This document shows positions 13,860 to 28,097 of a stretch of 64,000 nucleotides of DNA, piece after piece (position 1 is the first letter of the stretch; each line of letters starts with the position of its first letter). Under the pieces are notes generated by a model. It searched no databases, had not been told where the DNA came from, and saw nothing but the letters and a program-made list of their open reading frames with translations. Origin of the DNA: an uncultured Anaerolineae bacterium (GTDB taxonomy: Bacteria > Chloroflexota > Anaerolineae > Aggregatilineales > UBA3940); contig CAYTPI010000019.1 of the NCBI GenBank assembly GCA_964439625.1, positions 73 through 64,072 of the forward strand, given 5' to 3'. A program made the position numbers and the translations under genes.

Positions 13860-15008
13860 CTAATAGCGCAAAATCGCAGCGATGGAGGTGTCGCTCGGCA
13901 TTTGGGTTGGGGGTAGCACATGGACTTTGCCGCCTGTCTTTAAAGTGCGGACGGCAGCTATATCCAACAGGTCGTCATTGGCAATGTGCTGCTCACTGTC
14001 AAATGCGAATGTATCTTTATCAGCATCGTAGCGACCCCAACAGTGTGCCCCCATAGCAACCAGCAGTGTATCGACGCGCCCATAATGCGCCGCACGGACA
14101 GCATCTTCGATGGCAGCCACTGACCGATTGCTATTGAGTAGGTTGTTATAGGCCTTGATGGCCTTATCTTGGGCCTCTTTGAAGATTGGTTCAACGATTG
14201 CCCATGCTTTAGCGTGCAATTCTTTATCATTGGACTTATCGGGGTTGCCGATAATGCCCTTATCAGCTAAGTTATCATAAGTATTGGCCTGCTGGTAGAT
14301 CGGGTGCAGGTAGTCAACGGTTGCCAACAGCAGCGGCGGGGTTTGGTCGCCGAAGACGGCATGCAGACCTTTATCTAACTGGCGAAAATAGCGCAGAATG
14401 CGATCTTTATGCTCATCATCTGGGTCGTGCCCATGGAACAGCGCACCGCCGCCACCGGAACTACCCATTGATCTATACTGTAACTGCTTCTCTGTCTGTT
14501 CATGGAACAAGGCATCTGCGAGGCTGGTTGGGACATCATCAAGTGGGACTTCAGAGATGTTATCGCGTGAGCCTCGTAGCAGGCGCACTTGCTTCTGACT
14601 GACTGCCAGCACGTAAAACTGACCGTTGTTTACAACCAACGGCAGCAGTGGCTTGATGTGAAAGCGCTCATTGACCATCACCATTTCCTCGAAGCTGGCG
14701 GGCAACCGATAGCTGTAGAGGTAGCTGTTAGTCAGGAAGAGCGCCAAGCCATCACTTTGCCTCTGCCAGAAGTCGTAATCGCTTAATAGGTCTTGAGCAG
14801 GTTTCAGCAGACCGTCGATGTCATCTGCTGTTAGAGAATCCATGTTGCTTAGGTGATTGCGCGCTTGCTTCAAGAGGTTCTTAAAGCGAATTTCATTCTG
14901 TTTGACCTCACTGCCTGCGCGGTAGGTCGGCATGTAAATACTGATGTGTGGACCGGGTTCGCGGTCTTCCATTAGTTCGGCGAGTGCCTGATTGTTCAGA
15001 ATTGCCAT
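13860..15008 (-). CDS. eRF1/Pelota-like protein (bacterial archaeo-eukaryotic release factor, baeRF-type)
   Basis: The N-terminus 'EPGPHISIYMPTYRAGSEVKQNEIRFKNLLKQARNHL' and the C-terminus 'AIEDAVRAAHYGRVDTLLV...DLLDIAAVRTLKTGGKVHVL' resemble the baeRF/eRF1 domain-3 pattern as I recall it. This needs HMM confirmation. Confidence 0.5.
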   Translation of the reverse strand: MAILNNQALAELMEDREPGPHISIYMPTYRAGSEVKQNEIRFKNLLKQARNHLSNMDSLTADDIDGLLKPAQDLLSDYDFWQRQSDGLALFLTNSYLYSYRLPASFEEMVMVNERFHIKPLLPLVVNNGQFYVLAVSQKQVRLLRGSRDNISEVPLDDVPTSLADALFHEQTEKQLQYRSMGSSGGGGALFHGHDPDDEHKDRILRYFRQLDKGLHAVFGDQTPPLLLATVDYLHPIYQQANTYDNLADKGIIGNPDKSNDKELHAKAWAIVEPIFKEAQDKAIKAYNNLLNSNRSVAAIEDAVRAAHYGRVDTLLVAMGAHCWGRYDADKDTFAFDSEQHIANDDLLDIAAVRTLKTGGKVHVLPPTQMPSDTSIAAILRY

Positions 15009-15389: not shown

Positions 15390-16601
15390 ATGTCAGACTT
15401 GTTCACACGTCCAAGATATTTTCGTGATGTTGTTTTTCACCGTCATACAGATCGGGCCGTTGGTTGGCTGGAGCTGTTTTATGATCTGGTCTACGTCGCC
15501 ACTTTGATTCAGATTGGTAACTTTCTAAGTGACAACTTGACTCTGCTCGGCTTTGGTCAGTTTTTGATCATGATGTTTGTGGTTTGGTGGGCCTGGACGG
15601 GAGAGACGCTCTATCAGAATCGCTTTGTCGCGGATGATTTACTGCATCGCCTTTTCGTCTTCATCCAGATAGCAGGTATTGCTACCATCGGGCTCAGCAT
15701 CAGTGAGGCCTTTGGTGATCTCTACATACAGTTCACAATTGGCTATGTGATAGTCCGCTCTATGATGGTTGTGTTGTATATCCGAATCTACAAACTAGAA
15801 TCGGAAAGTCGTTCGCAGTCGGCTAGTTTTATTATTGGCTTTAGCGGCGGTATTGCGATCTGGCTGGGGGCGATCTTTCTGCCAGCGGAATATCATTGGG
15901 TGGCTTGGCTTCTCGCCATTGTGTTTGAAATCAGCTTCTTTGCGCGTACATCAATGCTCTTAGATGCTAACAGTTGGAGCATCGATAGCCATCATGCTGT
16001 AGAGCGGTTTGGCATTTTTACAATTATCGTCTTGGGTGAGGCTTTCGTCAAAGTAATGGATGACGCTCAAGGTACAGTGTTGGGGCTTGAGCAGATATTA
16101 TTCGGAATCGTGGGATTGGTTACCCTTTACTGCCTCTGGTGGTTGTATTTCTCGGACATGGCTGGTGATGTTTGGAACCAACTTACTCCGCTTAAAGCTA
16201 TTTCTTGGGCATACGGACACCTGTTCTTGTCGGTTGGCTTGGTGGCATTTGGCGTTGCAACGAAAAAACTATTCGCTGAGGCTGTCAAACACCCGACAGA
16301 CCCTATCACAGATACATATCGCTTGCTCTTGACTGCTGCGATCACCTTTTTCCTGATCGCGTTAGCCTCAATCGATTACAGTGTGCAAGGTGCCACCACA
16401 GATAAAAACTCTGCTCTTAACGCACAAGTGCATTTTGTGAGTGCAATTGCCATCGTGATCGTTGGGTTTGTTATAACAGAGGTGACGGCGACGCAGTTTA
16501 CAGCGATTGTTGCGGTTATTTTGCTGCTGCAAGTCGCGTTAAGTATCTATGAGGCTGCATCTGAACCTGAGCATCTGCCGCAGTCTGCTGAACATGGGTA
16601 A
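15390..16601 (+). CDS. LtrA (low temperature requirement A) family membrane protein
   Basis: 'VGWLELFYDLVYVATLIQIG' is the LtrA signature. There are about 10 TM segments. Confidence 0.75.
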   Translation: MSDLFTRPRYFRDVVFHRHTDRAVGWLELFYDLVYVATLIQIGNFLSDNLTLLGFGQFLIMMFVVWWAWTGETLYQNRFVADDLLHRLFVFIQIAGIATIGLSISEAFGDLYIQFTIGYVIVRSMMVVLYIRIYKLESESRSQSASFIIGFSGGIAIWLGAIFLPAEYHWVAWLLAIVFEISFFARTSMLLDANSWSIDSHHAVERFGIFTIIVLGEAFVKVMDDAQGTVLGLEQILFGIVGLVTLYCLWWLYFSDMAGDVWNQLTPLKAISWAYGHLFLSVGLVAFGVATKKLFAEAVKHPTDPITDTYRLLLTAAITFFLIALASIDYSVQGATTDKNSALNAQVHFVSAIAIVIVGFVITEVTATQFTAIVAVILLLQVALSIYEAASEPEHLPQSAEHG

Positions 16602-21108: not shown

Positions 21109-21660
21109 TCAAGCGTCGCCTTCTTGCAGCTCCATCTCTTCGAGGATGCCGTACAGCAGTTGCAACAGCACATTCTTGACGCTCTCTTTGTCCGTCGCGA
21201 CGCAGGGCAGCATCTTGACGTCTTCATCGAGGCGCAGGGCAATGCGTAAATCTTCGATTAGCCAAGCATCATCGAGGTCTTGCTTGTTAGCAGCAACGAC
21301 GTAGGGCGTCGCAGCATAGGCGCGGAACGTCTCTAAAATGGAACGCGCTTCTGCGAAGGTCTCTGGCAGGGATGAGTCGACAAGGACGACGAACCCAAGC
21401 ATACCTTTCGCCAGAATATCCCACATGAAGTTGAAGCGCTTCTGGCCTGGCGTGCCGAATAGGTAGAGTACAAGGTCGTCATCTACCGTAATGCGCCCGA
21501 AGTCCATGGCAACGGTGGTGGAGTCTTTGACCTTTTCCGCCTCAGAACTGATGGCGCGTTCGGTCTGCACCACCTCAATCTCACTGATTGAGCCAACGAA
21601 CTTCGTCTTACCGGAGTTAAATGGCCCAGTTATGACGATTTTTACTGTTTGTGTATCCAT
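21109..21660 (-). CDS. small Ras-like GTPase (MglA/CvnD-like, COG2229 type)
   Basis: It has the P-loop 'GPFNSGKT', 'GTPGQ' (G3) and 'NKQD' (G4). Confidence 0.8.
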   Translation of the reverse strand: MDTQTVKIVITGPFNSGKTKFVGSISEIEVVQTERAISSEAEKVKDSTTVAMDFGRITVDDDLVLYLFGTPGQKRFNFMWDILAKGMLGFVVLVDSSLPETFAEARSILETFRAYAATPYVVAANKQDLDDAWLIEDLRIALRLDEDVKMLPCVATDKESVKNVLLQLLYGILEEMELQEGDA

Positions 21661-21793
21661 AGTGCCTCACTTTTGTTGTCAAAGCGGTTGGTGTCTTGGC
21701 TCACCGAACTGCTCACCCTAGTATGATTGCTGTACTATGTTACTAAATGCTGGTGTGGGTCGTGCGGTGCCCTCACCGAAATACAATAGGCGC

Positions 21794-22591
21794 TTAACTG
21801 CCCATATTCTGAAAATGGCTGATTAAGCGACCAACCAGCTTTTTCTTCTCTTTGACCTCTTCCGCACTAAGCTCTTCCTTCAGGCGGATTTGCACGAGTT
21901 CGATTAAGCCCGCTTCCCGCAAGCTACCGACGACTCGCCGAATTTGGCGGTCTTGCATCTCAAGGCTTTTGGCGATCATGCGGATGGTGTTGCCACCTTT
22001 CACGTAGCGCAGCACGCTCCACTCGTCACGGTTAAGTTCCAAATCTTTGATGACATGCTTGGAGTTTTCCGTGAACTTCAGGCCAACGTCAAGGCTTGGG
22101 ATTTCATCCATAAGCTGCTCGTCGCGCTTTTGCACGCGGGCGATCTGAATGATGATGTTCTCAAGGTCGAGCGGAACAAGAATGCGGTCATTGCCGGGGT
22201 GCTGCTGCCCGTTGAACTCGAAAGCGCCTTCTTTCCAATGGGCAAACTCGTTGATGATCGTCAGCGCATGACGCTTGATGCTTTTGATAATATCTGCCCG
22301 GCTGACGTAATTCTTTTGGATCAAGAGCAAGCCGAGCTGCTTGTCACTGGTTTTTTCAGCGTGCTTGGAGAGGGTTTCTCCTTGTTCTTTGCTGATGCGC
22401 TTCGCACGAACCAGTACATTCGCCAGTGAGCCATCTGCGCCACCCAAGGCTGCAAACACCAGCTTACCATCTTTGAAAGCCAGTGCACCCTTCGTCCCTT
22501 TGTGGTTCACATGAAGTGTCCCCGACTTTTTGGCAAGGCTTACCAGATTTAAAATCTGAGTCGGATGAAAGTCTTTGAGGTTGCCCTTCAT
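21794..22591 (-). CDS. PATAN (DUF4388) domain protein with C-terminal winged-helix-like region
   Basis: 'MKGNLKDFHPTQILNLVSLAKKSGTLHV' is the typical DUF4388/PATAN start. The C-terminal 'IRMIAKSLEMQDRQIRRVVGSLREAGLIELV' is HTH-like. Confidence 0.65.
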   Translation of the reverse strand: MKGNLKDFHPTQILNLVSLAKKSGTLHVNHKGTKGALAFKDGKLVFAALGGADGSLANVLVRAKRISKEQGETLSKHAEKTSDKQLGLLLIQKNYVSRADIIKSIKRHALTIINEFAHWKEGAFEFNGQQHPGNDRILVPLDLENIIIQIARVQKRDEQLMDEIPSLDVGLKFTENSKHVIKDLELNRDEWSVLRYVKGGNTIRMIAKSLEMQDRQIRRVVGSLREAGLIELVQIRLKEELSAEEVKEKKKLVGRLISHFQNMGS

Positions 22592-22861: not shown

Positions 22862-23614
22862 ATGCCAAAAGACGATAAGACGCAGTCAGCTGACGCCAAT
22901 GCTGATGCTGCTGTGCCAGCACCTGAGGCCAAACAGAATGCCCTCGCGTCGACAAATGTTAAGGAAGAGGCATCGAAGCCCGCTCTGACGAGCAGCTCAG
23001 CAGTCAAAGAGCGTTCGCTGCCTAAAATCAATAAGCTGCCGCCCGGCTATATCCCCTTGTGGATTATCGCATTGACATCGTTGCTGTTGAATATTCTGTT
23101 AATCAACCAACTGCTACAGGTGCGTGCGCTTGCGGCTGTGACGATTGGTGAGGCTGCAATGATCTTGGAAGGCTTCGGTGATGAGACTTTCTCATACAAT
23201 TTTACGTTTGATGATACGTTGAATATCCAAACAGAAATTCCTGTTAATGAGACCATTCCGGTGGAAATCAACGAGCAAATTGACATATCAACAGTTGTCA
23301 ATGTGCCCATTCGTACACCGCTCGGCAACACTAGTGCTAACGTACCGATCAATACCACCATCCCCATTGATTTGGATTTTGAAGTGCCTCTCGAGCAGAC
23401 GTTTGAGGTGCAGGCTGCCGTGCCGATTAGCTTAAGTGTGCCGGTTGAGATCGGCGTCGAGGAGACACCGCTGGGTGGGGCACTTGATGAGATGGTGGCT
23501 AATCTTTACGACCTGTCTGCGGAACTCAGCCAGCCAATTGTTGCGCTTGGTGCGGGCAGTCAATCCGACAATTCAACGACTATTGAGGTGACTGCAACGC
23601 CTTCGTCAGAATAG
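22862..23614 (+). CDS. hypothetical single-pass membrane protein with repetitive 'VP(I/V)' beta-rich ectodomain
   Basis: AAAGGAA RBS. A charged N-terminus is followed by the TM 'LWIIALTSLLLNILLI'. It then has reiterated short motifs (IPVNETIPVEIN / NVPIRTP / NVPINTTIPIDL / AVPISLSVPVEI). Confidence 0.5.
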   Translation: MPKDDKTQSADANADAAVPAPEAKQNALASTNVKEEASKPALTSSSAVKERSLPKINKLPPGYIPLWIIALTSLLLNILLINQLLQVRALAAVTIGEAAMILEGFGDETFSYNFTFDDTLNIQTEIPVNETIPVEINEQIDISTVVNVPIRTPLGNTSANVPINTTIPIDLDFEVPLEQTFEVQAAVPISLSVPVEIGVEETPLGGALDEMVANLYDLSAELSQPIVALGAGSQSDNSTTIEVTATPSSE

Positions 23615-23622
23615 GTGATCAG

Positions 23623-23659
23623 TTGGGGAAGACTGCCGTGTGAGGATGGTCTTCCCCAA
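23623..23659. terminator. bidirectional hairpin between convergent genes
   Basis: ttggggaagac (23623-23633) pairs with gtcttccccaa (23649-23659). This is an 11-bp perfect stem with a 15-nt loop. Confidence 0.6.
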
Positions 23660-23670
23660 GCTGTTAATTT

Positions 23671-24462
23671 CTAATCGTCCTCTTCCTCTTCTTCATCGCC
23701 GCCGTCGTCTTCATCCTCCTCTTCCTCATCGCCGCCGTCGTCTTCATCCTCCTCTTCCTCTTCCTCTTCCTCTTCTTCATCGCCGCCGTCTTCTTCTTCA
23801 TCCTCCTCGCCACCGTCTTGATCGTCGCCACCGTCTTGATCGTCGCTGCCGTCGTCTTGATCGTCACCGCCGTCGTCTTGATCGTCACCGCCACCGTCTT
23901 GATCGTCGCCACTATCGAAATCGTCTAGATCGTCGTTAGGTGGTAGGGGCGCTGTTGGTTGGTCGTCATCATTATCATTACTGTCAGTCGCCGGTACTGC
24001 TGGCTGAGGTGCTGAAGCTGCCTCTTGTTCGTTCGTGGTTAGTTCATCCATCAGCGCTTGGTCATCATCGTCATCATCTGCCGGAGAAGCGGTATCTGAG
24101 TCTATCAGTGCTGCCGGGTCAGGCTCGTTGGGTATCGTGTCATTGACTTCATCACCGGACAGCGTCTCGATGCCCTGCTCGACTTGCTCAAGCTGCATCT
24201 GTAAGTCCATAAGGAGCGCTCTCAGCTCGTCCGTGGTGTAGAGAGCGCCGTTATAATAGATCAGTTCTGCGTCAGCAGATGGTTGAGCCGCCTCTTGTTC
24301 GGCTAAATCTGGTTGATCGATTTGCAGTAGTTCGCCATCGACTTCGCCCAGAAACTCTGGACGCTGCATCCGACGTTCAATGAGATAGCCGGCGCCGAGA
24401 ACAGCAACACTTGCGATGACTGCGAATAACCGACTGACGATTGAAAATATTGAAGCATTCAT
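23671..24462 (-). CDS. single-pass membrane protein with coiled-coil segment and ~90-aa poly-acidic (D/E/G) C-terminal tail
   Basis: The N-terminal TM 'IFSIVSRLFAVIASVAVLGAGYLI' is followed by ERRMQR. The central segment is 'LRALLMDLQMQLEQVEQGIETL'. The tail is '...DDQDGGGDDQDDGGDDQDDGSDDQDGGDDQDGGEEDEEEDGGDEEEEEEEEEEDEDDGGDEEEEDEDDGGDEEEEEDD*'. Its ATG lies 2 nt downstream of the stop of the ATP-grasp gene. Confidence 0.7.
   Translation of the reverse strand: MNASIFSIVSRLFAVIASVAVLGAGYLIERRMQRPEFLGEVDGELLQIDQPDLAEQEAAQPSADAELIYYNGALYTTDELRALLMDLQMQLEQVEQGIETLSGDEVNDTIPNEPDPAALIDSDTASPADDDDDDQALMDELTTNEQEAASAPQPAVPATDSNDNDDDQPTAPLPPNDDLDDFDSGDDQDGGGDDQDDGGDDQDDGSDDQDGGDDQDGGEEDEEEDGGDEEEEEEEEEEDEDDGGDEEEEDEDDGGDEEEEEDD
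23694..23910. repeat. in-frame tandem DNA repeats encoding the acidic tail
   Basis: There is a perfect 33-nt tandem duplication, catcgccgccgtcgtcttcatcctcctcttcct, at 23694-23726 and 23727-23759. About five degenerate 18-21-nt units (...ccgtcttgatcgtc...) lie at roughly 23809-23910. Confidence 0.85.
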
Positions 24463-24464
24463 GT

Positions 24465-25325
24465 TTAGTTCCTCTCTGTGGACTCGTCAAAAATGACGTT
24501 ATACAGTCCTGCTGTTGTGATGTTTTGTATTTCAAGGCCGGGGCGAGCATTTACTTCTAGAATAATGACCCCCAATGATTGATCAATAACAACATCAACC
24601 CCGAGATACGTTAGCCCAGTTGCTTCAGCACAACGCGCTGAGACATCGAGAATGGTGTGCCATTCTGGTATTTGTGTGCCAACCAATGGATGGTTGGTGT
24701 CAGGGTGGGTATCAACAGCCTGCCCCTTCTGGTAGGCCGCATCAATACGACCCGTCTTCAGGTTGATGGCTGCACCGAGGCCCCCTTGGTGCAGGTTGGC
24801 ACGACCGCCTGTTTCGTGCGTGGGTAGACGGGCCATTGCCAGTTCAGGTTGGCTACCGTTGCAGATCACGCGGATATCAGGTAAGCCAACTGGGGCCAGC
24901 CCAAGCAGCGTAGCATGTGGACGCAGCAGTGGTTCAAACAAGGCCATATCGCTGCTACCTGGTGAATGCTCACCGTCGATGATTTCGCGGGCGTGCTCGA
25001 AGATGGCAGCCGGTGTGATCAGCTTGCCTGAACCACTGCGCCAACCGCCCTCTGTGCGGCTTACTGCCAGCATGACGCCCTTGCCCTGTAAACTTTGGTT
25101 AGGCTTCACCACCCATGCTTCTGGCAAAACGTCGAAGTTAAAACGGCGCAGCTCAAAAGGGTCACGGATCAGGTACAGTGTCGGCACCACTGGGTTGCCC
25201 ACTGCGATGAGAGCCTGCTTGGCGGCGTGCTTATCATTGACAAGCCGGATCGCTTTCCTCGGATTGGCGCCATCAATAAATGCGTTGCGGGCGTTCAACC
25301 CTAGAATGTTGTCCCAGTTAACCAT
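24465..25325 (-). CDS. RimK-related ATP-grasp ligase ('alpha-L-glutamate ligase-like', TIGR02291-type)
   Basis: The N-terminus 'ILGLNARNAFIDGANPRKAIRLVNDKHAAKQAL' matches the remembered 'ILGMNRRN..YI..N.R......DDKL.TK' start of this family. The C-terminus 'LTYLGVDVVIDQSLGVIILEVNARPGLEIQ' is the ATP-grasp Mg/ATP site pattern. Confidence 0.7.
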   Translation of the reverse strand: MVNWDNILGLNARNAFIDGANPRKAIRLVNDKHAAKQALIAVGNPVVPTLYLIRDPFELRRFNFDVLPEAWVVKPNQSLQGKGVMLAVSRTEGGWRSGSGKLITPAAIFEHAREIIDGEHSPGSSDMALFEPLLRPHATLLGLAPVGLPDIRVICNGSQPELAMARLPTHETGGRANLHQGGLGAAINLKTGRIDAAYQKGQAVDTHPDTNHPLVGTQIPEWHTILDVSARCAEATGLTYLGVDVVIDQSLGVIILEVNARPGLEIQNITTAGLYNVIFDESTERN

Positions 25326-26478
25326 TCGTCAGTTTGGCCTCCTGTGCCGCCTGCCGAAAGCGTATGACCTCGGTCAGGCGTAAGCCGCGGTATGACCCCA
25401 ATAGCCAGATCCAGATGACACAGGCCACTGCCAAGGCGACGGGCATCGAGTCGGCAAGCAGACGAATAAAGGGGGATAGAAACAGAGCCGTCATCACCAA
25501 GGCGACGATCACAGTGCTGAGGAACAGTTTGATTGTCTTTTTTGGACCATCGACATCAAAGCCTTCGTACAACTTCTCGACGACTAGCGCAATCGCGACG
25601 AGGGGTAGGGCCATCGCCAGTGCGTTTGCATCCGAGACGGGGTTCAGCAAATAATCCAGCACGATAATCACTGCGGAAGTCAGACCGATCAGAATGCCCA
25701 AGCGCGACAGTCGTGGTGTCCGTTGGCTGCGGAGGAGGGGTTCAAGCAGCAAGCCGAGAATGATGGCGATCACTAAGATGGCAAGTGCTGAAAATATGTC
25801 AACTTGTAGCATCGAAAAAGCGATCAACATTGGGGTGAAGGTGCCCAGCATTTTGAGCCCAATGATCTGCCGCAGTGCTACGATGAAAACAGCCGCCAAT
25901 GGAATGAGCGCGACCATCGTTGCCGTTTTAATGCGGGTCTGTGTGGCAGCGATGAAGGCTTCGATAGTCGATGGTGCCCGCCCTTCGCCGGGGTCCGTCA
26001 GTTGGGTTTGGTCTACCGCGACGCGTACATCACCGAGGACACTGCGCCCAACGACCAGCGGCGTGCTGAGGTTGGCCCGGTCAGAGACGGTGGCAAATAC
26101 GGTTTGCTGCTGGCCTGCAAACTGAACCGTCAACTGAATGACGGGGCGTTTTTCCACGCCACTGGGTGTGATCACCGATACGATCTCGGCCTGCGATAAG
26201 TCGTAACCTAATGTTTCAGCGAGGGTACGGTCAATTGAGACGTCTGAAGTCGCTGTATTGACAGCCGCCAGCACCTCCTTGGGCCGCCCATTTTGGTCGA
26301 ACAACAAGACGCGTTCTTCTGCCCCTACGGTGAGTGCCTCGCCACTGGCGCGTTCGGATGGACGCGCCAACCCAAGCAAAAAGATTGCTACAACAAGAAT
26401 AACGGTTGTTCCAACCTGCACGAGTGCGGGTATTGCACGGTTCATAGATAACTCCAATTCTGAAAAGGATGTAAACAT
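25318..26478 (-). CDS. fusion of a DUF785/COG4067 retropepsin-like domain (probably inactive) to a 7TM module
   Basis: An N-terminal TM is followed by '...EVLAAVNTATSDVSID...VITPSGVEKRPVIQLTVQFAGQQQTVFATVSDRANLSTPLVVGRSVLG', which is DUF785-like. Seven predicted TM helices follow, resembling the 7TM domain found with inactive transglutaminases in RimK-like neighbourhoods. It overlaps the ATP-grasp start by 8 nt. Confidence 0.55.
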   Translation of the reverse strand: MFTSFSELELSMNRAIPALVQVGTTVILVVAIFLLGLARPSERASGEALTVGAEERVLLFDQNGRPKEVLAAVNTATSDVSIDRTLAETLGYDLSQAEIVSVITPSGVEKRPVIQLTVQFAGQQQTVFATVSDRANLSTPLVVGRSVLGDVRVAVDQTQLTDPGEGRAPSTIEAFIAATQTRIKTATMVALIPLAAVFIVALRQIIGLKMLGTFTPMLIAFSMLQVDIFSALAILVIAIILGLLLEPLLRSQRTPRLSRLGILIGLTSAVIIVLDYLLNPVSDANALAMALPLVAIALVVEKLYEGFDVDGPKKTIKLFLSTVIVALVMTALFLSPFIRLLADSMPVALAVACVIWIWLLGSYRGLRLTEVIRFRQAAQEAKLTNG

Positions 26479-26656
26479 AACGCCTGTAAAGTAATCATAA
26501 AGTCATGGGTTATGCTTTAGGTCAATGGCTATGGGCCTTGCTGTGCCTTGGTTATTGATGCGTGCGCCCACCGTTCATGAGCCTATCTACCCATTCACTA
26601 TAGAAGACGAATGACCCCCCTCAGGGGTGTACATCGATTTGGAAATTGGTCGGAAT

Positions 26657-26686
26657 CAAAAAGCCCGATGCTGCTGCACTGGGCTT
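26657..26686 (-). terminator. weak hairpin + T-run downstream of asnS
   Basis: The minus strand reads gaAGCCCagtgcagcagcatcGGGCTTTTTG. Confidence 0.4.
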
Positions 26687-26759
26687 CTCATGATCTTAAG
26701 CGCACAGTCAGCGGTGTGGGTCACGACTTAGACGCTTTCAGTCTCTATTCTATCCGATA

Positions 26760-28097
26760 CTACGGCAGTACGCGGTTGAGCATGCGCGGGAAGGGGATCG
26801 TCTCGCGTAGATGGTTGATGCCGCATAGCCATGTGACGGTGCGCTCGACGCCCAGCCCGAAGCCAGCGTGCGGCACGCTGCCATAGCGTCGCAGATCAAG
26901 GTACCACTGGTAGTCTTCTTTGTTGACTCCGAACGCTTCGATGCGCTGTTCGAGTAGGGCTAGGTCAGCGATGCGCTCGCTGCCCCCGGTGATCTCGCCG
27001 TAGCCTTCCGGTGCCAGCATATCCACGCTGCGGCAAATTTCAGGCCGACCCGCTACCGGGGTCATGTAGAAGGCCTTGACCGCCGTTGGGTAGTGGTAGA
27101 CAAAGATTGGCGTCTCGTATAGCTCTGTGAGGGCTGTCTCGTGCGGCGAACCGAAGTCCTCGCCCCATTCAATCTTGAGCAGCGCTTTCTTTTCGGAGTC
27201 TGCTTCAGCCTCGTAGAGTGCTTGCAGCTTGGCAACGGCGTCATCATAACTGATGCGCGGGAAGGGCGCTTTGACCTTCTCTAGCGGGGCCGTGTCGCGC
27301 TCTAAAACAGCCAGTTCGTTCTGGCGCTCGTTAAGCACCGTCTGCACGATATAGCTGACAAACTGTTCTTCGGCGTCCATCAGGTCTTCGAGGCTGTAGA
27401 AGGCCATCTCCGGCTCCACCATCCAGAATTCGGTCAGGTGGCGGCGCGTCTTAGATTTTTCCGCCCGGAAGGTCGGCCCGAAGCAGTAGACTTTGCCAAA
27501 CGACATGATATTGGCCTCGTTGTACAACTGCCCTGTCTGTGATAAGTAGGTTGGGTCGCCAAAATAATCGACCTCGAACAGGTTGGTGGTGTTCTCACCG
27601 GCAGTTGGGGTAATGATCGGCGTGTCCATGTTGAGGTAGCCGTTGTCATCCAGCCAATTGCGGATCGCCTTGATCACCGTAGCGCGGATGCGTAACACGG
27701 CCCACTGCTGTGACGAGCGCAGCCACAGGTGACGATTGTCCATCAAGAACTCGATGCCGTGATCTTTCGGCTGAATTGGGTACTCCTCGGCGATCTGGTA
27801 GATTTCCAGCCCACTGACGCCGACCTCGAACTTGCCCGGTACACCCGGTGCGCGATCATCAGCGCGGACGGTGCCTGTGATGCTCAGGGCGGACTCTTGC
27901 GTCAGTGTTTGGGCTTCCTCGAATAATTCCTCGCTAACATCGCCCTTGAACACGACGCATTGTACAATGCCCGTGCCGTCGCGCACTTGAATGAACTGTA
28001 GTTTGCCTTTGCCTGTCCTATTGTAGACCCAACCACGCAGTGTGACTGCTTGCCCGTCGTAGTCGGCGATGTTCTCTATACTGATTAACTCTGCCAC
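26760..28097 (-). CDS. asnS: asparagine--tRNA ligase
   Basis: It has '[22 protein letters not shown]' (OB fold), '[24 protein letters not shown]' (class II motif 2, AsnRS-type) and '[15 protein letters not shown]' (motif 3). At 445 aa the length is AsnRS-like. Confidence 0.85.

Follow-up and report, generated by a model that had tools for sequence, protein, structure and literature searches.

A divergent rlo-type operon of an Anaerolineae bacterium with a predicted pseudo-protease domain and a hyper-acidic membrane-anchored third protein

Introduction

What does an ATP-grasp ligase make or modify when its gene is packed between one for a membrane protein with a protease-like domain and one for a small membrane protein that ends almost entirely in acidic residues? 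The question is raised by three minus-strand genes in a stretch of 64,000 nucleotides (hereafter the window) from an uncultured Anaerolineae bacterium of the Chloroflexota (assembly GCA_964439625.1, contig CAYTPI010000019.1, positions 73 to 64,072). An initial annotation, made from the letters of the sequence, proposed that the third protein is the dedicated substrate or primer of the ligase, that the membrane protein serves as scaffold or tail reader, and that the whole is a previously undescribed system. Gene neighbourhoods combining ATP-grasp proteins with proteins of seven transmembrane helices (7TM) were reportedly described computationally by Iyer et al. in 2009. A literature text search for PF14402, PF14397 and TIGR02291 by name returned no mention. 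The core of the locus corresponds to a known system, the rlo operon, which was characterised genetically and structurally in 2025 (PMC12239564), and the claim of a previously undescribed system had to be given up for that core.

The rlo operon of Pseudomonas aeruginosa encodes a secreted retropepsin (RloA), an inactive transglutaminase with seven transmembrane helices (RloB) and a cytoplasmic ATP-grasp protein (RloC) (Lormand et al., mBio 2025, PMC12239564). Strains without the three RloA paralogues die in hypo-osmotic medium and are impaired in biofilm formation, beta-lactam tolerance and cell shape, and deletion of rloB or rloC suppresses these defects (PMC12239564). RloA cleaves stretches of at least eight consecutive Glu residues, whether internal or C-terminal, and leaves DDDDEEEDDD uncleaved; its D48N variant is the published inactive control, and the residues contacting polyE are needed in vivo (PMC12239564). 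No genome-encoded poly-acidic substrate candidate was found in P. aeruginosa, and the authors suggest that one possible substrate of RloA is a protein polyglutamylated after translation (PMC12239564). The same paper states that RimK polymerises Glu in vitro without a primer. In Shewanella, disruption of RloB changes membrane-vesicle production (PMC12096838).

We read the locus as a Terrabacterial form of the Rlo envelope-stress module with a pseudo-protease and an accessory polyanion gene, and assign this explanation as a whole a probability of about 0.5. Two changes are clear in the lineage of the window. The retropepsin lost its catalytic Asp, and the tail of the third protein grew by tandem-repeat expansion. 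The new elements relative to the known operon are the Asn-variant pseudo-retropepsin, a recurrent small third component, and the hyper-acidic form of that component in the window clade. We infer that the third protein is not a conserved substrate of the ligase family.

A divergent rlo-type ligase and membrane protein

The three genes occupy 25318-26478 (gene 1, longest open reading frame (ORF), 386 aa), 24465-25325 (gene 2, 286 aa) and 23671-24462 (gene 3, 263 aa) on the minus strand. The first two share 8 nt (ATGGTTAA), and GGAGG lies upstream. Gene 3 follows gene 2 after a gap of 2 nt and is preceded by an AGGA ribosome-binding site. The dense packing first read from the ORF list was thereby confirmed. 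Gene 1 has an alternative start at a second ATG (26445), which gives a protein of 375 aa. This is most probably the true start, because GGAG precedes it by 6 nt and the orthologues in the two most closely related loci of our survey (L001 and L002) begin at the equivalent position.

Gene 2 (24465..25325) encodes a predicted cytoplasmic, RloC-like ATP-grasp ligase of family PF14397. It matches the PF14397 model (ATPgrasp_ST) over residues 13-277 of 286 with an E-value of 6e-50 and 170.5 bits (cutoff 31.4). The best NCBIfam match is TIGR02291 (3.8e-60), as the initial annotation had suspected, though at 203.5 bits it stays below the cutoff of 314.2. Ligases in classical rloABC layout reach 443-444 bits against this model and the Terrabacterial relatives in L004 and L033 reach 210 and 235, so gene 2 falls in a divergent sister branch of TIGR02291. 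Models of RimK itself align with only the C-terminal ~40 residues, and both cutoffs are missed (TIGR00768, 44.3 bits vs 143.4; PRK10446, 18.9 vs 331). RimK is still the nearest solved structure. Foldseek searches with an AlphaFold 2 model of mean confidence (pLDDT) 91.5 placed the RimK entries 4iwx, 5zct, 7qys and 7qyr at the top (E 2e-12 to 1e-10; TM-score 0.49-0.57, with 0.54-0.57 for the top hit; 20-23% identity). ArgX/LysX, cyanophycin synthetase and the graspetide ligase PsnB came next, with Ddl lower. Comparison with hidden Markov models (HMMs) for TIGR02291, PF05618 and the 7TM families upheld the family assignments, and the ATP-grasp protein did not fall outside the RimK/TIGR02291 grouping.

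Gene 2 retains 45 of the 45 columns that are invariant across 79 homologues, and the retention of every such column suggests that it is probably an active ligase. K74 and E257 are among its invariant residues. Its best match among GTDB representatives has 54% identity. Higher values were found for the ligases of L001 (66%), L002 (59%) and a further locus, L097 (57%). The window, L001 and L002 form one clade in 99 of 100 bootstraps.

Gene 1, taken from its probable start (25318..26445), encodes a membrane protein with eight predicted transmembrane helices. Hydropathy and loop charge place an N-terminal anchor, predicted with its N-terminus inside, at aa 15-38 (26365..26436). A RimB/RloA-type retropepsin-like domain, predicted to be extracytoplasmic, follows at about aa 50-165 (25984..26331) and was delimited by BLASTP and a family profile. 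The 7TM module spans aa 187-376 (25351..25920) and ends in a basic cytoplasmic tail that overlaps the start of gene 2. This module matches PF14402 (7TM_transglut) at 7e-22 and 78.5 bits (cutoff 25; aa 187-376). The NCBIfam model for RloB (NF052267, labelled 'osmotic stress tolerance membrane protein') aligns at 6e-19 through its C-terminal positions 312-504 only. The direct match of gene 1 to PF05618 is weak (1.3e-3; 19-21.5 bits, below the gathering score of 27). A profile built from 20 homologues of the N-terminal domain matches the structures 9g59, 9g58 and 2pma (1.8e-10 to 1.8e-7) with the catalytic DTGA motif aligned, and all 20 profile members match PF05618 (best E 1.7e-12). By these profile matches, the N-terminal domain is a divergent homologue of the RimB/RloA retropepsins. 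The domain order given by the initial annotation, a transmembrane anchor, a DUF785/RimB-like domain and a 7TM region, is upheld by PF14402 and the homologue profile.

No transglutaminase domain (PF14400 or PF01841) was found in gene 1, and the retropepsin-like domain occupies its place. Transglutaminase domains are present in the proteobacterial homologue of L076. BLASTP with the N-terminal domain matched 47 ORFs in related loci, and in about 42 loci of Actinomycetota and Chloroflexota the domain is fused to the 7TM module. Over the whole survey, about 55 loci of these two phyla have the fusion. The survey with gene 2 also recovered gammaproteobacterial loci in the exact rloABC layout, with an RloA-like protein, an RloB-like protein (355-453 bits) and a TIGR02291 score of 443. 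The occurrence of this layout among gene 2 homologues makes the window pair a divergent branch of the Rlo system.

Judged by these comparisons, genes 1 and 2 represent the rlo operon in a variant, Gram-positive-type, Terrabacterial form. As in the rlo operon, a 7TM_transglut module adjoins a TIGR02291-type ATP-grasp protein and is translationally coupled to it (the PF14402 gene and gene 2 share 8 nt), and a RimB/RloA-type retropepsin domain lies on the outer side of the membrane, in the window by prediction. Unlike in the rlo operon, the 7TM module of the window carries the retropepsin domain where RloB has its transglutaminase-like domain. The catalytic Asp is replaced by Asn, and with 203 bits the ligase stays under the TIGR02291 cutoff of 314. 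The window also adds a gene for a hyper-acidic single-pass protein, and its host is of Terrabacterial type, not a gammaproteobacterium.

A predicted pseudo-protease on the outer face

The catalytic motif was compared across loci in a MAFFT alignment. The DTGA position reads NTAT in the window (aa 74-77; 26248..26259, minus strand) as well as in L001 and L002, NTGV in L003 and D[TS]GA in all others. Thirteen further loci (L084-L103) all carry an Asp-type motif. The window motif thus combines an Asp-to-Asn with a Gly-to-Ala replacement, and the residue at -2, equivalent to K46 of RloA, is Ala. The equivalents of RloA R114 and R137 are kept as R111 and R134. The domain is predicted to be catalytically dead because DTGA has become NTAT, with the same Asp-to-Asn change as in RloA D48N, the inactive control. 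The N-terminal domain is 74-75% identical between the window, L001 and L002, compared to 59-66% for the ligase, and is the best-conserved part of the operon. With conservation above that of the ligase, the domain looks like a functional pseudo-protease in the lineage of the window.

Lys and Arg residues in alternate loops of gene 1 indicate that the N-terminus is inside, the retropepsin-like domain outside and the basic C-terminal tail inside. The predicted outward orientation of the domain fits RloA, which is secreted, and RloB, which has a periplasmic domain. A single-sequence AlphaFold model of gene 1 reached a pLDDT of 47, was unusable and was excluded from the structure search.

The initial annotation assigned the 7TM/retropepsin-like protein a role in reading the acidic tail of gene 3, and this role found no support in electrostatics. 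Net charges of the core of the N-terminal domain range from -4 to -8 within the window clade, vs a median of +3 elsewhere. A net acidic, outward-facing domain that lacks the catalytic Asp cannot shorten the tail and makes an unlikely polyanion reader.

The third gene and its hyper-acidic tail

Gene 3 (23671..24462), defined by the ORF list and by its orthologues in L001 and L002, encodes a single-pass membrane protein with a hyper-acidic, disordered tail. The single hydrophobic segment covers aa 12-28 (24379..24429). A juxtamembrane module marked by invariant alignment columns extends from RPEFLGEVDGE (aa 34-44) to YYNGALY (aa 69-75; 24238..24363). The D/E/G tail itself (aa 176-263; 23674..23937) stands out by composition and tandem repeats. 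The last 88 residues are 89% D/E/G, in agreement with the initial description, and the net charge of the whole protein is -95. Tandem Repeats Finder resolves the coding sequence of the tail into 33-bp and 21-bp tandem repeats, and a run of ten Glu residues (E10) lies at 23749-23778. With a peak D/E density of 0.85 vs 0.42 for the next ORF, gene 3 is the most acidic in the 64 kb. A halophile-type acidic proteome was considered as the cause and rejected, as the median D+E fraction across 33 large ORFs is 0.108.

Searches for relatives of gene 3 were negative throughout. In word-indexed searches, the full-length protein found no homologue in protein sets of up to 5.8 billion sequences, where poly-E words saturated the candidate list, and neither did its N-terminal 110 aa. 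An exhaustive phmmer search against 1.84 billion representatives detected no homologue, and a metagenome pattern scan with the alignment of three gene 3 sequences found no further one. The two orthologues in that alignment were found by synteny in the closest ligase relatives, L001 and L002, which come from one metagenome. They share the anchor and the motif R[PA]x[FY]LGEVDG[EQ]...YY[ND]GxL[YW] with the window and carry 200-aa D/E tails with net charges of -111 and -118. The flanking genes of L001 and L002 are syntenic too, and the conserved order alone is therefore weak evidence of a functional tie.

A fourth hyper-acidic tail was found in the third gene of L097. The distance from the ligase to the third gene is +2 nt in the window, +22 in L001, -4 in L002 and -4 in L097. 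All four tails end in D or E. A Glu run of at least eight residues occurs in the window only (E10) and is missing from the other three, so what is conserved is not a site for RloA-type cleavage.

The third position across related loci

We scanned related loci for ORFs with an N-terminal hydrophobic segment that start between -40 and +90 nt from the stop codon of the ligase. A small coupled anchor ORF follows the ligase in about 40 of the roughly 57 retropepsin-type loci. Most of these ORFs are 57-195 aa long and lie at a distance of -1, -4 or -13 nt from the ligase, and independent gene callers list the third-position genes of L003, L093, L095, L097 and L103. Their tails are mostly rich in Ser, Thr and Pro (S/T/P; fraction 0.4-0.5), with mildly acidic ones (D+E 0.28-0.36) in L015, L039 and L084. 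The C-termini are not conserved and often non-acidic (...ASKRP, ...GHLSP, ...GEGGER).

The third gene of L097 encodes 259 aa with a tail of net charge -87. In its N-terminal part it shows homology to the short protein of L003, which is not acidic (46% identity over 43 aa, E 3e-9), and the protein is unrelated in sequence to gene 3 of the window. An HMM built from 31 actinobacterial small anchors did not rank gene 3 of the window above 330 background ORFs, and an HMM of gene 3 from the window, L001 and L002 did not detect the proteins of L097 and L003. Given both negative results, we claim no homology across the third position. As far as sequence comparison resolves them, at least three unrelated families fill this position, and hyper-acidity occurs in two of them.

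Close counterparts of the window are the cassettes of Actinomycetota and Thermomicrobiales found in this survey, in which a retropepsin-7TM gene, an ATP-grasp gene and a small-anchor gene follow each other. They share the gene order, the overlaps and the architecture with the window. They differ in keeping the active D[TS]GA motif and in having tails of 60-195 aa that are mostly S/T/P-rich or mildly acidic, and homology of their third genes to gene 3 cannot be demonstrated. A variation was found in an Actinomycetota metagenome-assembled genome (MAG; L024:3596-4183), where the third gene encodes an N-terminal anchor and an active-type (DTGA) retropepsin domain, the second of its locus after that joined to the 7TM protein.

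Other lineages fill the position differently. Sphingomonadales loci have no such small anchor gene after the ligase. Four loci from MAGs of Gammaproteobacteria, Myxococcota and deltaproteobacteria (L068, L070, L076, L078) encode an N-terminally anchored protein of 640-715 aa coupled downstream to the ligase, with gaps of -4 or +2 nt. Tetratricopeptide (TPR) repeats were confirmed in the post-ligase proteins of L070, L076 (6849-8768) and L078. The anchored TPR protein is a possible fourth rlo-associated component, and it is not mentioned in PMC12239564. Loci from MAGs of the Candidate Phyla Radiation (CPR), namely Saccharibacteria, Doudnabacteria and Andersenbacteria (L069, L071, L072, L074, L075), have a retropepsin domain with intact DTGA fused to the C-terminus of the ATP-grasp protein (e.g., L074:5911-7293). 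The 7TM protein carries a PKD domain in L071, and the next gene in L074 codes for a class A penicillin-binding protein (about 941 aa). The 7TM protein and the ligase form the invariant core, and the accessories around them relate to the cell envelope.

The initial annotation expected an acidic-tail gene to recur beside the ligase in related genomes. Such a gene is present in L001, L002 and L097, while the roughly 40 related loci mostly have S/T/P-rich or mixed tails. The initial interpretation is partly supported, but its proposal that gene 3 is a dedicated substrate is weakened. An acidic gene is coupled to the ligase in L001 and L002 and an unrelated acidic tail recurs in L097. A general role of gene 3 as substrate of this ligase family is excluded, because the third position is variable or empty and is taken by a TPR or penicillin-binding protein elsewhere.

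Two observations concern the surroundings of 7TM-ligase pairs. In L066 (2313-6861; an Actinomycetota MAG), a membrane-anchored protein of 245 aa has a poly-Asp tail (...DDDRDDDGGDDD). The genes that come next encode a histidine kinase, a response regulator, a 7TM protein that lacks an outward-facing domain, and an ATP-grasp protein. Two-component systems also lie directly upstream of the 7TM-ligase pair in L092, L093 and L095, which echoes the reported links of VxrAB and CreBC to rlo genes.

Tail topology and a proposed mechanism

Most third-gene proteins have basic n-regions, and many also have AxA-like sites (MKR...SLQA|AG in L003; MSAVRA|EP in Streptomyces). Most are predicted to carry signal peptides or anchors with the N-terminus inside, with tails outside the cell. 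S/T/P-rich tails are typical of extracytoplasmic linkers in Actinobacteria. For gene 3, Lys and Arg residues before and after the anchor number 1 vs 3 in the window, 3 vs 3 in L001 and 2 vs 1 in L002, and the net flank charge is more positive on the N-terminal side in all three. The initial annotation took ERRMQR behind the anchor as a sign of a cytoplasmic tail. The net charge of the flanks and the analogous loci favour the opposite, and by this charge difference and analogy the tail of the window protein lies somewhat more probably outside the cell.

We suggest the following mechanism. The ligase, on the cytoplasmic face of the 7TM protein, would make an anionic alpha-peptide from free amino acids, probably poly-Glu-like, a step drawn from Pseudomonas genetics and RloA biochemistry. 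The 7TM protein would pass or present this product outside, where the retropepsin would normally trim it. Gene 3 would encode a membrane-anchored accessory subunit whose tail, more probably outside, could form a polyanionic brush at the membrane surface. The tail might persist there because the neighbouring protease is dead.

Several points weigh against this explanation. Rlo function is known from P. aeruginosa genetics, and the Terrabacterial members are known from sequence alone. Gene 3 is equated with the actinobacterial small anchors by position and architecture only. L003 combines the Asn variant with a tail that is not acidic, and the contig of L097 is cut and does not show the catalytic motif. 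The link between dead protease and acidic tail therefore comes from one clade (99/100), in effect a single evolutionary event. Taken by itself, the positive-inside rule would also place the window tail in the cytoplasm, given one basic residue before the anchor and three behind it in ERRMQR.

Alternative explanations

The alternative that survives best retains the initial proposal. The tail of gene 3 would be cytoplasmic and serve as a dedicated primer or substrate, extended with Glu or Asp much as RimK extends S6, with the 7TM protein as scaffold. We consider this unlikely. Genes 2 and 3 and their counterparts are tightly coupled in the window, L001, L002 and L097, the four hyper-acidic tails all end in D or E, and ERRMQR in the window and ERRFVR in L001 follow the transmembrane segment. 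Hyper-acidic tails recur in unrelated proteins at the third position, and the nearest ligase structures act on carboxylates of proteins or peptides (RimK on S6, ArgX/LysX on LysW, cyanophycin synthetase, PsnB). The proposal of the Rlo authors that a polyglutamylated protein may be an RloA substrate points the same way (PMC12239564). However, most related ligases are followed by proteins with non-acidic tails or C-termini or by no such gene, and the n-regions of most third-gene proteins predict tails outside. A search for charge adaptation of the ligases in acidic-tail loci revealed no trend. A primer is not required either, as RimK needs none in vitro (PMC12239564). Finally, with a cytoplasmic ligase and an outward-facing retropepsin-like domain, a tail cannot be extended by one and read by the other unless it is exported.

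Two known systems bear on this alternative. In the RimK/RimB/S6 (RpsF) system an acidic C-terminal tail likewise stands beside a Glu ligase, the chemistry of gene 2 being assigned by analogy. RimK is the closest solved structure and RimB is homologous to the gene 1 domain. However, that system is soluble and cytoplasmic and targets a ribosomal protein, whereas gene 2 fails the RimK model (44 bits vs 143), the partners in the window are membrane proteins, and the protease domain is predicted to be outward and dead. In the LysW-LysX/ArgX system, one cluster encodes a small acidic protein and the ATP-grasp ligase that attaches an amino acid to its C-terminal Glu, and ArgX and LysX are among the top structural neighbours of gene 2. 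LysW, in contrast, is a soluble zinc-ribbon protein of a biosynthetic operon without a membrane part, a polymer or a protease.

Slightly less likely still is that gene 3 encodes a fast-evolving, lineage-specific envelope protein that has no mechanistic tie to the ligase and stays adjacent by synteny. The lack of any homologue in the 5.8 billion and 1.84 billion protein sets and the metagenome scans would fit, as would the repeat-driven tail. Synteny with L001 and L002 extends equally to the DUF4388 gene and the flanking gene for a 250-aa protein, which makes gene order alone weak evidence. This reading has difficulty with the stop/start overlap or very short gap found in every case. The same kind of gene also follows the ligase across many genera with differing flanks, and the hyper-acidic tail at the third position of L097 belongs to a different sequence family.

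It is improbable that the ligase amidates a carboxylate of the cell wall or a polysaccharide and makes no peptide polymer, with the 7TM protein and gene 3 as envelope-side accessories. The Pfam name of the gene 2 family PF14397, 'sugar-transfer associated ATP-grasp', and the class A penicillin-binding protein encoded by the next gene in CPR loci are suggestive, as are the cell-shape and beta-lactam phenotypes of Rlo mutants (PMC12239564) and the altered membrane-vesicle production after RloB disruption in Shewanella (PMC12096838). Yet the partner protease family cleaves poly-alpha-Glu and needs its polyE-contacting residues in vivo (PMC12239564), and the nearest structures of gene 2 are peptide ligases, with Ddl ranking lower.

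A pathway resembling ribosomally synthesised and post-translationally modified peptides, in which the ATP-grasp protein modifies the variable C-terminus of a third-gene precursor as in graspetides before export and processing by the 7TM-protease, is very improbable: third-gene products do pair a conserved N-terminal with a hypervariable C-terminal part, PsnB is a structural neighbour and a protease and membrane protein share the operon, but the conserved part is a hydrophobic anchor or signal and not a soluble leader, the tails of 40-290 residues lack a core motif, and PF14397 is not known as a graspetide ligase family.

The Rlo envelope-stress reading with an accessory polyanion has a functional analogue in PgsBCAE/CapBCAE. 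These membrane-bound amide-ligase complexes make and export an anionic polypeptide, include the tiny single-pass protein PgsE or CapE, and rely on CapD or PgdS for extracytoplasmic processing. The likeness is one of function only: the proteins share no homology (PgsB resembles Mur ligases), the polymer is gamma-linked and a genome-encoded polyanion plays no part.

Implications

The 7TM-ligase pair is widespread beyond Proteobacteria, with the protease fused to the membrane protein, and the small single-pass protein is a frequent and previously undescribed third partner. The lineage of the window provides a natural experiment in which a dead protease meets an extreme polyanion as third partner, including an E10 run. 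The locus could serve as a cheap experimental entry to what RloC-type ligases make or modify. It is doubtful, although of consequence, that gene 3 acts as a membrane-anchored primer on which the RloC-like ligase builds a poly-Glu or poly-Asp chain, with the dead retropepsin as a non-cleaving handler of the tail. If true, gene 3 would be the first dedicated protein substrate of RloC/TIGR02291-like ligases, and Rlo-type systems would be protein-tailing machines of the cell envelope.

Transcript ends and neighbouring genes

The three genes end at a strong hairpin (23623-23659) with a perfect 11-bp stem and a 15-nt loop in the 56-nt convergent intergenic region. The hairpin, noted already in the initial annotation, folds with -23.3 kcal/mol (z -6.1), and 0 of 200 shuffles fold as well. 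It has no T-tract and a 15-nt loop, and was therefore missed by the terminator scan. It is probably the end of the gene 1-3 transcript, though not a textbook intrinsic terminator. Upstream, a terminator-like hairpin with a T-rich tail (26614-26628, minus strand) is found about 130 nt past the end of the asparaginyl-tRNA synthetase gene (26760-28097). This hairpin suggests that the three-gene operon has its own promoter within 26446-26613. A sigma-70 promoter scan of 23300-26900, including the ~170 nt before gene 1, gave no match, and neither did an Rfam search of the window.

Convergent to gene 3, a plus-strand gene (22862-23614) encodes a 250-aa single-pass protein without a family match, and L001 and L002 have a 250-aa ORF on the opposite strand at the matching place. 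Further on (21109-22591, minus strand), a small Ras/MglA-like GTPase (PF03029, with Arf/Ras matches) adjoins a DUF4388/PatA_N protein. The latter has a C-terminal winged-helix domain, and its gene is syntenic in L001 and L002. More distantly, a minus-strand gene (13860-15008) encodes a 382-aa protein with a bacterial archaeo-eukaryotic release factor domain (baeRF family 7/3), and it adjoins the gene of an LtrA-family membrane protein (15390-16601).

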